Of a stretch of 5,073 nucleotides of DNA, positions 38 through 4,755 are shown one piece after another. This DNA is from a virus. Lineage: Duplodnaviria > Heunggongvirae > Uroviricota > Caudoviricetes. The translations under genes were made by a program, and so were the position numbers. Every line of letters begins with the position of its first letter. Position 1 is the first letter of the stretch. The DNA lies in IMG/VR virus record IMGVR_UViG_2541047825_000005; one strand, given 5' to 3'. A model generated the notes under the pieces. That model was not told where the DNA came from. It saw only the letters and a program-made list of their open reading frames with translations, and did not search any database.

Positions 38-862
38 TCAGGCGGTGAAAGTACCAATAAAGGTTTCTACTTTGCTGTCTTTGAATTTCTCAACAAGCAG
101 ATCACGAAATTCGTTAGCCATTTCTTCCTGCACCGCTTCCAGCTGAATAATGCGCAGAACCAGTACAGGACGATCGCCAGTGATAATGCTGAGGCGTAAT
201 TTAAACGGACGTTCTTTCAGACCTTCAAACGGAACGCATTTAAATTCAAATGCCACTGGCATAATGTCTTTGGTCTTCGCTTCGACAGACTCCATCAGGG
301 AGCGTTTGCCGCTGAAGTCATTATCTTCAAAATCAGCGGTCTGGTTCGCTTCAATTGTGATTTTACGGATCGCCGCAGCCGCTTTGGTTGCCTGAATGGC
401 GTCACCATTAGCATCAAAGCCCACAAGGTAGTCGGCCCAGTCTTCAATCCATTCTGCCAGTGACTTCTGGGAGTTACGCTCGCCGTTAACAGACAACAGG
501 GCAGAGAACGGTGCTGTCTTTTTCAGTTTGAGAGTGGCGGTGTTATCTGCGTGACCTGGTTCATCAATAGTACCCAGGTTAAGCACACTGACTGCTCGCA
601 TATTATCGGCATCGATAAAGCAGCGGGTGCCTTCATCTGCAAGATCTTTAGAATAACGGGTAAAGTCATCGATGCTGGCAGTGGAAAGCGCACCACGGAA
701 ACGGAAGCGATTTAAATTAAATTTTTCCAGATCATGAATGCGGAAATTCTCAGGCAATGCCACAGCATCGGCACCAATCTTACTGATAATTTCATTAACA
801 CCCTGAGCAGAAATAAGAGCATGGATTTGATTAATTGCGGTTGCGTCTAAGTTCTGAGACAT
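38..862 (-). CDS. yfdQ: DUF2303-family prophage protein (YfdQ-like), 274 aa
   Basis: Complete ORF. ATG at 862 is preceded on the minus strand by TGAGGA with a 6-nt spacer. Amino-acid composition is protein-like. Length and sequence recalled as matching E. coli K-12 CPS-53/KpLE1 YfdQ; identity is from memory, not a search. Confidence 0.8.
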
Positions 863-927: not shown

Positions 928-1290
928 TTAATGACCTGCTGCGCGGAGTTTTCCGTCAGGTTCACCGGCAAGAGTCAGTAATTGTCCCTGGTCTTCCTGC
1001 AGAATAGTCAGGCGACCACCGCGATTGACATACATCGGCGTTTCGGTGGTGTCTTCTTCAGAAATTTTCCCGCGGTTAGTCGGGCGAACATATGAAAGTT
1101 TGTGTTTGATTTTCACACGGTTCTCATCAAATGGTTCGATTTCCAGGTTGAGTGAGACCTTACCTTTGGTTTTCGTGTTCATCACACCTGAAGCGACTTC
1201 ACTGAGAACTGCGCCGATTTTGGTTTCAAATACGCCGCCGTCCAGCTCCCCGATAAATGCCTGCACATCAGTACTGCGTTCGCTAGCCAT
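928..1290 (-). CDS. yfdP: YfdP-like hypothetical prophage protein, 120 aa; first gene of the leftward early operon
   Basis: ATG at 1290 is preceded by GAGGAG with a 7-nt spacer (minus strand). The ORF-track extension to 1476 has no RBS-supported start except in-frame ATGATG at 1308/1305 (alternative start, +6 aa). Sits immediately upstream of the YfdQ-like gene, as in KpLE1. Acidic, no recognisable motif. Confidence 0.7.
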   Translation of the reverse strand: MASERSTDVQAFIGELDGGVFETKIGAVLSEVASGVMNTKTKGKVSLNLEIEPFDENRVKIKHKLSYVRPTNRGKISEEDTTETPMYVNRGGRLTILQEDQGQLLTLAGEPDGKLRAAGH

Positions 1291-1338
1291 TTTGCTGCTC
1301 CTCATCATATCGACCCTGCAAGGTCGGTTGGTTTCTCC

Positions 1339-1427
1339 ACAAAACAGAGAAGAACACCTGCGGTGACTGCCGCCCGGATGGATTGGGTTATGAGCCCGTC
1401 GTCCGGTGATGCTCTTCTCTGTTTTGT
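1339..1427 (-). promoter_or_regulatory. Predicted long RNA hairpin in the 5' leader of the yfdP-like gene (perfect 15-bp stem enclosing 59 nt); candidate RNase III or antitermination element
   Basis: Plus-strand ACAAAACAGAGAAGA (1339-1353) is the exact reverse complement of TCTTCTCTGTTTTGT (1413-1427). The interior contains further short GC stems (GCGG/CCGC, CCGG/CCGG). Lies about 50-140 nt upstream of the start codon at 1290. Confidence 0.4.
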
Positions 1428-1473
1428 AAAAAGAGCGGTACCAGCCGGAAGCAAGTGTACAAACTGGTACCGC
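1428..1473 (-). terminator. Intrinsic-terminator-like hairpin with U-tract on the minus strand, inside the early-left leader
   Basis: Stem GCGGTACCAG (1435-1444) pairs with CTGGTACCGC (1464-1473), a 10-bp perfect stem with a 19-nt loop. Read on the minus strand it is followed by TCTTTTT (1434-1428). The same tract reads CGCTCTTTTTACAA, which resembles boxA. Confidence 0.4.
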
Positions 1474-1904
1474 CAAAGCAGTGGCTGTTGTGGTGACCGG
1501 TGCTGATCTCCGGCTTGCGGTTATTTCAGACTCTCACGGGTGTTTAATTGCCCCGCCGAACAGCTCTTTTCCGCAATAGCTGCAATGTCTTTCGCGCATC
1601 AGCCTGCGCATTCACCACAACGCTGAGAGCACTTAGCCAGTTACGGCACCACACTTTGTCGCGGTTCCATAAATGCCCTCATCGTTGCACCCTGGTCTCT
1701 TCCCAGGCGTCAAACCGAATCGCCACGCTGGTTAGGCGTCTTATCAGCATCCTCATTGACTTGCACATTCCGGCTACCTGGTTTGTCTGCTCGAGCAAGG
1801 AGTGGATTGTCCCCTTTAACGTCCCCAGACCGCTAACGACGCATGTGCCATACGCCGTGTTACAACCAAATTTTGTTAGGACCTTGTTTGTTGGTCTGGA
1901 AAGA

Positions 1905-1943
1905 AAGATAAAATGAAATTGCGTAATGTGCAAGTGTTTTTTT
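1905..1943 (-). promoter_or_regulatory. PL-like early-left promoter overlapping an OL-like operator dyad
   Basis: Minus strand: -35 TTGCAC (1933-1928), 17-bp spacer, -10 TATCTT (1910-1905), A7 tract just upstream (1943-1937). Dyad TTGCGTAATGTGCAA (1919-1933) has the same TTGC-N7-GCAA architecture as the dyad TTGCGCGTTAAGCAA in the cI/cro intergenic region. Confidence 0.4.
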
Positions 1944-2012: not shown

Positions 2013-2705
2013 TTAATTGTGTCGCTTAAGGGTTTGTGACTGGCTGATTAAGACCTTTCCAAAGACCATAAACCGGTGTTCATTTTCGCTGGTAATTCCC
2101 CATTCACGGTAAATCTGGTTATCAGAAATCACCAGTAGTTTGTCAGGTATCATTTGCAGTCGTTTGACATAAATTTTATCATCAAAACCAAATACATATA
2201 TACCATCCCCATCAAACTGATTGATACTGATATCAACGAAGATGAGATCTCCTGGCTCAATGGTTGGACACATACTGTCCCCACGAACGTTGATAACTTT
2301 AATGTGATTTGCTGGTCGTCCACCAAACATCGATACAGCATTATCAGTTCTGTATTCAATGGCATGAATCACATCAATGACATCACCGCCCTGGATAAGG
2401 CCATTTCCCGCACTGGCACTGACATCCAGCATTTCAATACGGAATACATCCTTCACCTGCGCAACATCCTCACTAATACTGTTTTTACATACAGTATTAC
2501 TTTTGACGTCTGAGGTAAAGAGATCAGCAATATCAACACCTAAGCTCCTGGCAATATTACTCAGGGCTTGTTCAGTGAATTGTTTCTGCTTACCTGTTTC
2601 GAGGCGCGAGATATTCGCCGCATCCACTCCTATTGCTTCAGCGAGATCGGCGATTTTCATGTTCTTCGCCTGGCGAAGTTGTCTGACTCGGTTTCCTATG
2701 TTCAT
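2013..2705 (-). CDS. CI-like phage repressor (N-terminal XRE-type HTH, C-terminal S24/LexA-type autopeptidase), 230 aa
   Basis: HTH segment MKIADLAEAIGVDAANISRLETGK. Ala-Gly cleavage-site candidate (SASAGNG). Ser and Lys catalytic dyad motifs GDSMCPTI and YVKRLQ. Divergent from a cro-like gene. No Shine-Dalgarno upstream of the ATG, consistent with a leaderless transcript. Confidence 0.9.
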   Translation of the reverse strand: MNIGNRVRQLRQAKNMKIADLAEAIGVDAANISRLETGKQKQFTEQALSNIARSLGVDIADLFTSDVKSNTVCKNSISEDVAQVKDVFRIEMLDVSASAGNGLIQGGDVIDVIHAIEYRTDNAVSMFGGRPANHIKVINVRGDSMCPTIEPGDLIFVDISINQFDGDGIYVFGFDDKIYVKRLQMIPDKLLVISDNQIYREWGITSENEHRFMVFGKVLISQSQTLKRHN

Positions 2706-3063: not shown

Positions 3064-3607
3064 GCATCACTGGAAAGTGGAAAAACAGCCTGAGTGGTAC
3101 GTGAAAGCTGTCAGAAAAACTATCGCGGCGTTGCCGGGGGGTTACGCTGAAGCTGCTGAGTGGCTGGATGTAACAGAGAACGCTTTATTCAACCGCCTTC
3201 GTGCAGATGGCGATCAGATTTTCCCGCTGGGATGGGCAATGATTTTACAGCGCGCGGCTGGCACTCACTACATTGCGGATGCTGTCGCACAGTCTGCAGG
3301 TGGGGTGTTTGTATCGCTTCCTGACATTGAGGAAGTTGAGAACGCCGATATAAACCAGCGCCTGCTGGAAGTCATCGAACAGATCGGGAGTTACTCAAAA
3401 CAGATTCGTTCGGCAATCGAAGATGGGGTAGTGGAGCCACACGAGCAGACAGCAATTAATGATGAGTTGTATCTGTCAATTTCGAAGCTCCAGGAGCATG
3501 CAGCACTGGTCTACAAAATCTTTTGCGCTCCAGAAAAGAGTGACGCCCGCGAGTGTGCAGCTCCGGGCGTCGTGGCGTTTTGTGTCTGTGGAGAAACTAA
3601 CGCATGA
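3056..3607 (+). CDS. Phage early regulatory protein, 183 aa, possibly CII-like/YdaT-family (family assignment uncertain)
   Basis: GTG start at 3056 preceded by GGAGG (3043-3047) with a 6-nt spacer, overlapping the cro stop by 8 nt. Protein-like composition. Putative HTH-like segment AEWLDVTENALFNRLR. Position immediately after cro matches the cII / ydaT slot. Confidence 0.7.
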   Translation: MGKHHWKVEKQPEWYVKAVRKTIAALPGGYAEAAEWLDVTENALFNRLRADGDQIFPLGWAMILQRAAGTHYIADAVAQSAGGVFVSLPDIEEVENADINQRLLEVIEQIGSYSKQIRSAIEDGVVEPHEQTAINDELYLSISKLQEHAALVYKIFCAPEKSDARECAAPGVVAFCVCGETNA

Positions 3608-3752
3608 ACAGTTTAACGGCAAATAACCGTTTGTCGCAACAGCTGGTGGTCAGTGTCGCTGAACACCTGTTGTTACGGCATGAATGCAGATTACCAAATC
3701 ACCTGGCTGTAAGTAACCACAGAGAACTTTACCTGACTGTGGGGGGCGAGTT

Positions 3753-3932
3753 GTGCAGGAACTTAACCGCTGGTTTCGTGACGGAAGAGGGCTTTATGTT
3801 CATGTTATTCGTTGGGAACCAGAAACACAGCGCGTTATCTATCTTCGCAAAGACTACCCGCATGAGTGCTTTAGTCCTTTGTGGAAATTCAGGCGTGATT
3901 TTGTTGAGTGTGAAGGACCACCAGCACATTGA
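3753..3932 (+). CDS. Candidate small ORF (59 aa, GTG start) in an alternative frame to the long stop-free frame; hypothetical
   Basis: G6 tract (3741-3746) acts as a possible SD, with a 6-nt spacer before GTG at 3753. Translation VQELNRWFRDGRGLYVHVIRWEPETQRVIYLRKDYPHECFSPLWKFRRDFVECEGPPAH has normal Asp/Trp content but is Arg-rich. Below the length cut-off of the supplied ORF track. Unverified. Confidence 0.25.
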   Translation: MQELNRWFRDGRGLYVHVIRWEPETQRVIYLRKDYPHECFSPLWKFRRDFVECEGPPAH

Positions 3933-4017
3933 TTCTGCCATTCCGGGACGTTACACTGTTCAGGCACCTTATAAAGCGGGTGCCGGGCGTGGAAACTCGG
4001 AATTCACCAAAGCGCAC

Positions 4018-4040
4018 AACCGCGCTCTTGCGGTTTTTTT
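4018..4040 (+). terminator. Terminator-like hairpin with T7 run on the plus strand (tR1-like position); also carries the boxA-like heptamer CGCTCTT
   Basis: Stem AACCGC (4018-4023) pairs with GCGGTT (4030-4035) around loop GCTCTT, followed by TTTTT so the T-run spans 4034-4040. Only 4 GC pairs, so a weak stem. It lies inside the stop-free frame 3604-4209. Confidence 0.3.
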
Positions 4041-4209
4041 GTGTAATGAGCAGCATTACGCCCAAATTATGGTGGGGCGTGCAGGGCCAACTTCGGTTGG
4101 GCCGGGTTCTTTGGTGACCGGTATTTCCACCCCTGTACGTCTCACCACCAATAAGGTCGTGGAAAGCCTTGGTGGTGAGTTATTAAAAATCACCAAAGAG
4201 GCTGCCATC

Positions 4210-4755
4210 ATGGCTACGATCCCAACCCTCACTCAACCTGAAATTGCCATCGTTGATGGTCAGGCTGTTACTTCATCCCTGGCTGTTGCCAACTTCTTCT
4301 CCAAACGTCATGACGATGTACTGAAAAAGATCCGCACGCTTGAATGCTCTGCATCATTCACTTCCCGCAATTTTTCGGCGAGTGATTACACCGATTGCAC
4401 AGGCCGCAAACTACCTTGCTATCAAATAACCCGCGACGGCTTTGCGTTTCTTGCTATGGGTTTCACGGGTAAACGTGCTGCCCAGTTCAAAGAGGCATAT
4501 ATCAATGCCTTTAACCAGATGGAGAAACAGCTTTCAAAGCCCGCTGTACCGAGCGACGTTGCACATAACGCCAGCGTTCTCTGTTCCTACATTTCATCAA
4601 TTCATCAGGTCTGGCTGCAGCAGCTTTATCCTATGTTGGCAAAAGCCGAATCTCCGCTGGCTGTTAGCTTATATGATTATATTAATGATGCTTCGGCGCT
4701 GGCCTGCCTCATAAATTTGTCGCTGAACCCTTCAGAGGTAAGGGGGCGCAAATGA
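4210..4755 (+). CDS. Rha-family phage regulatory protein, 181 aa
   Basis: ATG at 4210 preceded by AAGAGG (4196-4201) with an 8-nt spacer. N-terminal segment IAIVDGQAVTSSLAVANFFSKRHDDVLKKIR...YQITRDGFAFLAMGFTGKRAAQFKEAYINAF matches the recalled Rha N-terminal domain signature. The frame is open upstream to ATG 3604, so a 383-aa version cannot be excluded. Confidence 0.8.
   Translation: MATIPTLTQPEIAIVDGQAVTSSLAVANFFSKRHDDVLKKIRTLECSASFTSRNFSASDYTDCTGRKLPCYQITRDGFAFLAMGFTGKRAAQFKEAYINAFNQMEKQLSKPAVPSDVAHNASVLCSYISSIHQVWLQQLYPMLAKAESPLAVSLYDYINDASALACLINLSLNPSEVRGRK

Follow-up and report, generated by a model that had tools for sequence, protein, structure and literature searches.

Conserved RNA modules, one of them tRNA-shaped, in the leader of the yfdP operon of a lambdoid prophage

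Several kinds of RNA are known from the leaders of phage operons. The lambda 6S (PR') RNA and StxS are small RNAs that arise by termination in the leader of a phage operon, with read-through needed for the genes behind; they start at the promoter and depend on Q. The C4 antisense RNAs of P1 and P7 and the CI RNA of P4 are cut from operon leaders, being released by RNase P. Finally, the put RNAs, as in HK022, are structured RNAs found just downstream of the leftward promoter PL in lambdoid phages that lack N; the read-through of terminators that marks them depends on the RNA and on the beta' zinc-binding domain. Here we consider a 5,073-nucleotide (nt) stretch of viral DNA (IMG/VR record IMGVR_UViG_2541047825_000005; the window), the immunity region of a lambdoid Escherichia coli prophage of the mEp460/SfV type, and in particular the leader that separates its PL-like promoter from the gene yfdP. 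We find that this leader is a chain of conserved RNA modules, which we call W, X, Y, T1 and Z, of a type that flanks tRNA genes in many phages. The central part of the chain has already been published as a small RNA (sRNA) of E. coli K1, sRNA-17 (PMC7719688). The modules are as follows.

1691-1857, minus strand: module W, a conserved pseudoknotted RNA domain (alignment A2)
1622-1690, minus strand: module X, a hairpin with an acceptor-like stem (GAGGGCA 1680-1674/UGCUCUC 1631-1625) and a variable interior
1487-1621, minus strand: module Y, a tRNA-shaped three-way junction (alignment A5, P1-complement count and minimum free energy (MFE) fold)
1428-1474, minus strand: T1, an intrinsic terminator with a 13-bp stem (1474-1462/1446-1434) and the U tract UCUUUUU (1434-1428)
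1429-1621, minus strand: sRNA-17, that is Y plus T1 (placed by primer mapping; yfdP lies downstream both here and in the published strain)
1339-1427, minus strand: module Z, an X-type hairpin whose 20-bp stem opens into a three-way junction

A sensitive search of phage records reveals the leader to be a mosaic, segments of which match DNA beside tRNA genes in unrelated phages: directly 3' of trnI in phage P1, 70 nt 3' of tRNA-Thr in the P1-like RCS47, directly 5' of tRNA-Arg in phiV10-type phages, and upstream of a tRNA-Met in Erwinia phage Gungnir39 and coliphage swi2. Klebsiella phages UPM 2146 and 6991 have the 42-nt core of Y and no tRNA in the stretch examined. As a whole, the leader (1291-1900, minus strand, 609 nt) folds at -233.7 kcal/mol, compared to -198.6 +/- 5.7 for shuffled sequences (z = -6.2). 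This bears out an earlier reading of the same DNA (the sequence-only reading), which had described a structured leader of some 600 nt; W and Y, the most conserved structured domains, were absent from it, and the stems of both carry many compensatory changes between homologues.

Module Y, the core of sRNA-17, is built from the following parts.

1621-1613/1495-1487, minus strand: helix P1, which closes the module
Between helix P1 and P2: the junction AAU
1609-1605/1598-1594, minus strand: hairpin P2, GCGCA-GGCUGA-UGCGC
1593-1515, minus strand: a variable insert of 80 nt
1514-1510/1500-1496, minus strand: hairpin P4, GCCGG-AGAUCAGCA-CCGGC, leading straight into the 3' strand of P1
1603-1599/1506-1502, minus strand: loop-loop complementarity, GCUGA/UCAGC

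A 42-nt stretch of this module is more than 90% identical among very different phages; the 5' 22-mer and the 3' 21-mer each have exact matches in at least 120 IMG/VR viral contigs, and 115 species genomes contain the 22-mer: Gamma-, Beta- and Alphaproteobacteria, and a few other metagenome-assembled genomes. The unpaired bases are near-invariant across these three classes, the insert comes in discrete, swappable versions from 0 to about 170 nt, and P1 ranges from 6 to more than 13 bp. In an alignment of 88 distinct sequences (A5), 18 of 24 pairs have changed on both sides, and none of 500 shuffles matches the alignment on any measure; controls in which the pairing was slid along the sequence are 28-50% paired. 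As the sequences in A5 had been selected for pairing, we also made a separate, unbiased count: among 245 contexts gathered by the 22-mer alone, 195 carry the exact 6-nt complement of P1 downstream, compared to 22-36 for control hexamers. The MFE fold of the window copy recovers P1, P2 and P4. For the putative kissing contact between the two loops, covariation support is weak because the contact is nearly invariant, with 13 G-U variants and one A-U double change.

Y resembles a tRNA in its layout: the closing helix is stacked on one of two 5-bp hairpins, a variable arm lies in the centre, and the putative contact between the two loops is positioned as is the elbow of the D and T loops. Unlike a tRNA, Y is recognised neither by ARAGORN nor by the Rfam tRNA model, its loop sizes are non-canonical, P1 is variable in length, and an encoded NCCA follows in only about 11% of copies (1.6% expected by chance). 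Its position adds to the resemblance. The 3' flank of X (MFE -24.5 kcal/mol, z = -2.0) abuts Y; across contexts, this flank is followed by Y in 55 cases, by a genuine tRNA-Arg(UCU) in 11 and by something else in 40. phiV10 has, one after the other, a promoter, W, X, tRNA-Arg, a pair of terminators and the next gene. Because tRNA-Arg(UCU) replaces Y after promoter, W and X in the phiV10-type phages, Y sits in a tRNA slot. The stem of X is itself compensatory between loci (AAGAGCA/UGCUCUU elsewhere, AAGGGUA/UACCCUU in RCS47), and X and Z are members of a single hairpin family, whose stems have the pattern CAAC-N4-AAGAGCA...UGCUCUU-N4-GUUG. We note in passing that ARAGORN calls a transfer-messenger RNA (tmRNA) across the X-Y region of coliphage swi2 (locus L010 of our collection, 1111-1485), ending in tRNA-Met, which is probably an artefact of the tRNA-like modules, and that weak permuted-tmRNA matches in Rfam (about 26 bits) lie near such modules in loci L006, L029 and L043.

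What is made from Y can be read from published work. The strain studied, E. coli K1 RS218, has an mEp460-like prophage; there, sRNA-17 was defined as a 193-nt RNA by 5' and 3' rapid amplification of cDNA ends (RACE) and by Northern blot; it is expressed in LB, at a higher level in stationary phase, and its authors found no Rfam homologue and, by BLASTN, matches in enterobacteria only (PMC7719688). We placed the RNA on the window by its published primers and Northern probe (Table S2, PMC7719688): the primers map without mismatch to 1429-1460 (plus strand) and 1590-1622 (minus strand), the probe to 1511-1560 with one mismatch. The 5' end (GUUGUGGUGAAUGCGC...) is the first paired base of helix P1 (1621), which in this copy spans 9-10 bp and not the 7 of a tRNA acceptor, while the 3' end falls in the U tract of T1 (1429).

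T1 (-21.2 kcal/mol, z = -4.8) is maintained via compensatory changes in its stem at loci L024, L245, L314 and L106, and the published 3' RACE end within its U tract establishes that it terminates in vivo. The sequence-only reading had noted here a perfect 10-bp hairpin followed by UCUUUUU; the hairpin is present (1435-1444/1464-1473) and extends to 13 bp. Among the devices proposed for the leader in that reading was a terminated small RNA, which turns out to be right for its centre, given that sRNA-17 ends in the U tract of this very hairpin. In wild-type cells of the strain in which the Northern blot shows sRNA-17, and hence in lysogens, yfdP is represented by just 0.49 normalised reads (PMC7719688), and transcription of Y therefore stops short of yfdP.

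One further feature of sRNA-17 concerns its two parts jointly. A segment of the Y insert, AAAAGAGCUGU (1570-1560), is complementary at 10 of 11 positions to the 3' strand and U tract of T1 (1429-1439), and a 12-nt deletion (CGGAAAAGAGCT) in phage phiSTEC1575-Stx2k takes out most of it. Since the identical insert occurs in phages without T1, this complementarity is probably coincidental; otherwise it could provide an alternative pairing inside sRNA-17.

How, then, might sRNA-17 come about? With moderate confidence, we suggest that the leader yields a terminated, 5'-processed, tRNA-like RNA and that T1 gates yfdP, yfdQ and yfdR. Leftward transcription would start at PL, upon derepression and, weakly, also in lysogens, and would run through W and X into Y, made in the slot that is held by a real tRNA-Arg in phiV10-type phages. 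Most polymerases would halt at the strong terminator T1, 13 nt downstream of Y, and removal of the upstream part at the foot of the closing helix would leave the stable 193-nt RNA. Only transcripts that read through T1 and Z would give yfdP-yfdQ-yfdR, so that T1 would act as an attenuator of the early-left operon.

The case for co-transcription and processing derives from the lack of a promoter signal belonging to Y itself: neither a promoter scan nor our own reading of the sequence finds an acceptable sigma-70 promoter upstream of 1621, and no fixed distance shows an enriched -35 element among 193 distinct Y contexts, 10 of which share a TANNNT hexamer at one fixed offset, a marginal -10-like signal. 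In favour of gating by a terminator are the strength and evolutionary maintenance of T1, the excess of terminator-like sites behind Y over control windows (38 of 176 loci), and the rise of yfdP and yfdR in the published deletion mutant described below. Such an RNA would resemble the C4 and CI antisense RNAs in being cut from an operon leader and in having a long closing helix and two hairpins; it would differ in that the complementarity in Y is between its two loops and not with target sites, the insert is swappable, and no covariance model matches. Nor would it start at the promoter, as lambda 6S RNA and StxS do: its 5' end is about 280 nt further downstream, where a conserved fold has its foot.

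Several observations weigh against this proposal. The RACE 5' end at 1621 lies 3 nt upstream of the RNase P cut expected for a stack of 7 + 5 bp. (A self-cleaving ribozyme cutting at the foot of P1 is unlikely because, with P1 varying from 6 to more than 13 bp, the end would fall at a variable distance from the conserved core.) sRNA-17 was published as an independent gene with its own ArcA-repressed promoter, and a clone of 1429-1821 complemented the deletion, so that an internal promoter is possible (PMC7719688). A recognisable terminator stands behind just ~22% of Y copies. The likeness of Y to a tRNA is a matter of architecture and position, with no Rfam or tRNA model to back it. Finally, there is the deletion mutant, in which a cat cassette replaced 1479-1596 with T1 kept, and in which yfdP rose approximately 95-fold and yfdR rose also (PMC7719688). 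The simplest reading of this rise, suggested by the fact that yfdP and yfdR are adjacent downstream genes in cis, is a polar effect; with T1 intact, it may stem from the cassette promoter and not from the loss of Y.

The proposal that Y is transcribed from PL depends on where that promoter is, which we read from the sequence as follows.

1905-1933, minus strand: PL-like promoter, -35 TTGCAC (1933-1928), 17-nt spacer, -10 TATCTT (1910-1905)

Its start would be at about 1898. The sequence-only reading had put a PL/OL-like promoter at about 1905-1943, and two observations fit that placement: an operator-like palindrome, TTGCGTAATGTGCAA, overlaps the promoter at 1919-1933 and has the same half-sites as the palindrome at PR, and homology with phages of other immunity ends at about 1877, just downstream. 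The consensus, on the other hand, is weak, and a consensus promoter scan did not report the site. Overall, the PL/OL assignment is plausible. In another group of phages (L004 1383-1420; L099, L297, L302, L427), TTGACA and a palindrome, ATTACCTTT(T/C)AGGTAAT, stand ahead of W, in what looks like a regulated promoter, maybe a late promoter with an activator or Q-type site.

The break at 1877 is a sharp mosaic junction: phages with other repressors (cdtI, Stx2c phages, L020, L106) are about 98% identical over 1200-1877 and then diverge. Because homology across repressor types stops there, the leader moves with the yfdP operon, separately from the immunity module. Homologues of yfdP are found downstream of Y in approximately nine diverged loci, and CPS-53 of E. 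coli K-12 retains yfdP and, of the leader, only the final 20 nt.

Module W, the first to be transcribed from such a promoter, has the following elements.

1857-1850/1844-1837, minus strand: hairpin H1, loop GGCAC
1829-1825/1781-1777, minus strand: base of H2, enclosing a variable hairpin
1778-1760, minus strand: invariant block GGUAGCCGGAAUGUGCAAG
1739-1736/1728-1725, minus strand: hairpin H4, loop CUAACCA
1733-1730/1716-1713, minus strand: pseudoknot AACC/GGUU
1707-1703/1695-1691, minus strand: hairpin H5, loop GAAGAGA

A 19-mer block of W, GGTAGCCGGAATGTGCAAG, is present in at least 120 viral contigs. In alignment A2, which comprises 27 diverse sequences, 97.3% of cells are paired and 12 of 33 pairs have changed on both sides, which none of 500 shuffles equals; slid controls are 27-47% paired. 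The alignment supports the four hairpins H1, H2, H4 and H5, along with a short three-pair helix (columns 113-115/161-163) that has no double changes. The loop of H4 pseudoknots with a downstream GGUG, of which the window carries the compensatory version AACC:GGUU. A second pseudoknot, GCAC:GUGC, is possible; it is invariant, so that covariation is uninformative. Upstream of W there is mostly a promoter-operator region at a short distance or an immediately adjacent tRNA; here W starts about 40 nt after the inferred PL start.

This position points to the leading alternative, namely that W, Y or both are cis-acting antitermination RNAs, comparable to HK022 put or the rrn leader though with a different fold. 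Transcription from PL, perhaps with the help of a conserved host factor, would then cross T1, Z and later terminators without N. A number of patterns would fit. There is no N-like gene before yfdP; the phiV10 cassette, W-X-(tRNA/Y), has a promoter on one side and, on the other, two intrinsic terminators that precede the next gene; and terminator-like sites occur within 160 nt after Y at 38 of 176 loci, compared to 9-17 in control windows. In at least four phages (L026, L066, L084, L100) Y lies about 30 nt upstream of a small Arg-rich open reading frame (ORF) that matches PHROG 271, 'anti-termination protein N-like' (E 2e-6 to 3e-13), which is the nutL position of an N leader, and at 24 loci Y lies upstream of endolysin (lysis) genes. 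Near-invariant unpaired bases in Y across three proteobacterial classes suggest contact with a conserved host machine, and a position beside untranslated tRNA arrays fits protection from Rho. Moreover, the H1 region of W (1857-1831; ACGGCG...CAUGCGUCG..AGCG) repeats the base of put stem I (L329, HK022, 804-770), a base conserved in five aligned putL RNAs; the shared part is 15 nt long and includes a G-U pair and the CAUG that holds U28.

Other observations speak against antitermination. Transcription in lysogens halts at T1, directly after Y. W of phage P1 directly precedes ban, and by eye (no scan was run) no terminator is noticeable in the approximately 100 nt between them. Y occurs in many intergenic settings, including between convergent genes, keeping in mind that gene surroundings were judged by a crude long-ORF proxy that is noisy (spurious ORFs in GC-rich genomes; 48 of 103 Y copies 'overlapped') and of qualitative use only. 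Finally, at E <= 10 neither the window nor any of ten W loci is matched by a covariance model that we derived from six put RNAs. The same model scores its positives at 97 bits (HK022 putL), 91.5 bits (HK639 putL) and 57.9 bits (HK022 putR), with E-values from 1e-11 to 1e-20. Membership of the HK022 put family is thereby rejected; put-type antitermination had been one of the options in the sequence-only reading. W also looks different: put is 74 nt long, V-shaped and made of two stems, whereas W is pseudoknotted and about 170 nt long, and where the put consensus combines the base of stem I with the GGCG/CAAU internal region of stem II, W displays only the local 15-nt resemblance. Antitermination by W or Y, argued from position and sequence likeness, is a possibility that we take seriously yet consider unlikely.

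Related to this is a broader and somewhat more tentative idea, that Y, and separately W, are new classes of widespread structured phage RNA that act on a conserved host machine. In one version, Y, shaped like a tRNA and with kissing loops as its elbow, could serve as a scaffold for the display of exchangeable inserts, and inserts resembling host RNA (a 16S segment in some Y copies; the initiator-tRNA-like arm of Z described below) could be decoys for RNA-targeting defences or RNA-binding factors. In the other, Y and/or W could be an antitermination RNA that depends on a host factor and is unrelated to put and nut. Inserts of the first kind exist in one Y version (L097 4600-4646, L127 1953-1999), which matches bacterial or microsporidian small-subunit rRNA models at 31.5-36.7 bits, below gathering threshold, and corresponds to 16S positions ~237-283, a 16S-helix-like piece on the Y scaffold. 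Downstream of Y, too, there is recurrent sequence: at L040, L097, L127 and L004, Y or tRNA-Arg is followed by an AAUCACG...CGUGAU hairpin and then a GGCGGU...ACCGCC(C)UUUU terminator, and at L011, L092, L095, L103 and L114 by a different conserved 80-nt element with a terminator at its end. These may be further sRNA-like units.

A second alternative is the published one, in which sRNA-17 is an independent trans-acting sRNA gene under its own ArcA-controlled promoter and the leader is incidental. It can draw on the Northern and RACE evidence, on a level 2.6-fold lower under microaerobic conditions and 3-fold higher in an arcA mutant, on an ArcA gel shift, and on the transcriptome and virulence phenotypes of the deletion, which a plasmid carrying 1429-1821 complements (PMC7719688). 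Against it, no convincing promoter lies upstream of 1621, and the Y contexts provide no fixed-distance -35 element and only that marginal -10-like signal (10 of 193). The gel shifts were run with 20-80 uM protein. The strongest 'targets', yfdP and yfdR, adjoin sRNA-17 downstream, which suggests a polar effect, and spontaneous induction of the prophage could underlie the responses to growth phase, oxygen and arcA. Nor does Y, with its invariant core and an insert that is swapped among phages, look like the seed-pairing sRNA one would expect. We therefore regard an ArcA-controlled, trans-acting sRNA-17 as possible, though improbable. The paper that describes it treats the RNA as a lone trans-acting sRNA, without the three-way-junction fold, the range of the family, the tRNA slot, modules W, X and Z, or the early-left leader position behind PL (PMC7719688).

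Module Z closes the leader and matters for the two remaining alternatives. It folds at -45.5 kcal/mol (z = -8.3), with 15 perfect bp in 25-nt arms that are 84% complementary. The two arms of its junction are GGG-CUCAUAA-CCC, similar to the anticodon stem-loop of an initiator tRNA (a look-alike CAU anticodon loop and three G-C pairs), and a short variable hairpin; Z is not recognised as a tRNA by ARAGORN. Between homologues, covariation is seen in the outer stem and also in the inner helix, around the anticodon-like arm (CCGGA/UCCGG versus CCAGG/CCUGG versus CCUGAUG/CAUCAGG). The sequence-only reading had described here, correctly, an 89-nt element (1427-1339) ending in a perfect 15-bp inverted repeat. 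The perfect duplex is there, yet as part of a tRNA-like three-way-junction module and not as a plain duplex, and it ends 36 nt, not about 50 nt, before the Shine-Dalgarno sequence of yfdP.

1288-1303, minus strand: Shine-Dalgarno sequence GAGGAG (1303-1298) and start codon ATG (1290-1288) of yfdP

Might the leader be the remnant of a decayed phage tRNA cluster, its role limited to spacing and to carrying a terminator? The window has no tRNA although its modules flank tRNA genes elsewhere, Z holds only a piece that resembles an anticodon arm, and K-12 CPS-53 keeps yfdP without the leader. Decay is nevertheless very improbable in the face of extensive compensatory variation, near-invariant loops, stems that maintain G-U pairs, recurrence in hundreds of phages from several proteobacterial classes, and the accumulation of a discrete, stable RNA (PMC7719688).

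Least credible of all is a lambda-type nutL, composed of boxA and boxB, with a downstream RNase III site through which translation of the first gene would be controlled: the tract CGCTCTTTTTACAA at 1437-1424 does resemble boxA and RNase III could cut the 20-bp stem of Z, but the tract varies in step with its hairpins, the operon starts without an N-like ORF, and Z, ending where it does, leaves the Shine-Dalgarno sequence free, in a region without significant structure (z = -0.24).

The tract itself, put forward as boxA-like in the sequence-only reading, is present; it is made up of T1 sequence (3' strand and U tail) and of the 5' strand of Z, and homologues read CGCCCTTTTTACAC or CGTCCTTTTTACAA, changing together with the stems of T1 and Z, on which ground we reject the boxA/nut assignment. 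The caveat that came with it, that the tract might simply be the U tract of the hairpin, has proved apt. The same holds for the remark that the downstream gene is not N-like: no N-like ORF precedes yfdP, and YfdP belongs to PHROG 204, the function of which is not known. An RNase III site calls for about two turns of uninterrupted duplex; cleavage of Z is structurally possible given its predicted 20-bp stem.

That the leader acts as RNA presupposes that it is non-coding, as the sequence-only reading had supposed, and we looked for conserved ORFs with homology support that would speak against this. RefSeq PGAP annotation leaves 1291-2012 empty; in deposited phage records, assorted short ORFs are annotated there on either strand. 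Searched against Pfam, seven leader ORFs gave no match. Two short ones match PHROGs without known function, families that derive from ORF calls over conserved leader DNA. By tblastn against all related loci collected, close relatives alone (identity of ~90% or more) keep the leader ORFs intact; more distant ones align with them in fragments, several containing stop codons, whereas yfdP aligns full length down to 48-67% amino-acid identity. We accordingly rejected the leader ORFs as genes.

Nor does the leader belong to a described RNA family. A scan of 1250-2030 against Rfam 15, a check that had been proposed along with the sequence-only reading, returns chance-level matches alone at E <= 10 and recovers no known family, the C4/CI family RF01695 included; copies of Y and W at 21 other loci are likewise without an Rfam match. 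The Rfam tRNA model finds nothing at E <= 10 in 1250-2030, and ARAGORN finds no tRNA gene in the window. A full-text literature search with core sequence strings, as DNA and as RNA, retrieved no paper, and general literature searches on tRNA-like phage leaders retrieved nothing relevant. Thus, while the central RNA is already known as sRNA-17 (PMC7719688), the fold of Y, its tRNA slot and its range across proteobacterial phages appear to be undescribed in Rfam 15 and the literature searched, as do the companion domains W, X and Z and the location of sRNA-17 in an early-left leader.

What makes these folds worth attention is their reach. Hundreds of alpha-, beta- and gammaproteobacterial phages and prophages carry them, with pseudoknots in W, putative kissing loops in Y and near-invariant loops in both, and neither is in Rfam. 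Part of the leader is matched in over half of the complete E. coli genomes searched: a query of 1200-2020 has partial matches in 3001 of 5426, of which 808 cover at least 80%, and it is also matched in 110 phage records. The sites are control points: leaders of early-left operons, the place of nutL ahead of N genes, leaders of late operons ahead of lysis genes, and tRNA arrays. The modules are testable candidates for a new phage mechanism of antitermination or tRNA mimicry. If sRNA-17 is one member of a tRNA-shaped, co-transcribed and probably processed family, the virulence phenotype of its deletion has to be read differently, a polar effect on yfdP, yfdQ and yfdR becoming likely.

The genes around the leader are those of a lambdoid immunity region.

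38-862, minus strand: yfdQ (DUF2303)
928-1290, minus strand: yfdP, first gene of the yfdP-yfdQ operon
2013-2705, minus strand: S24/XRE cI-like repressor gene

To the right of the cI-like gene follow a cro-like gene, ymfL and a Rha-type gene. The last of these, a 383-aa ORF at 3604-4755 annotated Rha/antirepressor, contains two matches to Rfam families on the plus strand, isrK at 3964-4040 (62.5 bits) and C4 antisense RNA at 4065-4152 (RF01695, 83.6 bits); a weak match resembling the c4-a1b1 target lies at 3951-4003. The first ~200 codons of this ORF are probably the non-coding RNA genes of a P1-type secondary immunity system, with the actual antirepressor probably starting near 4211.

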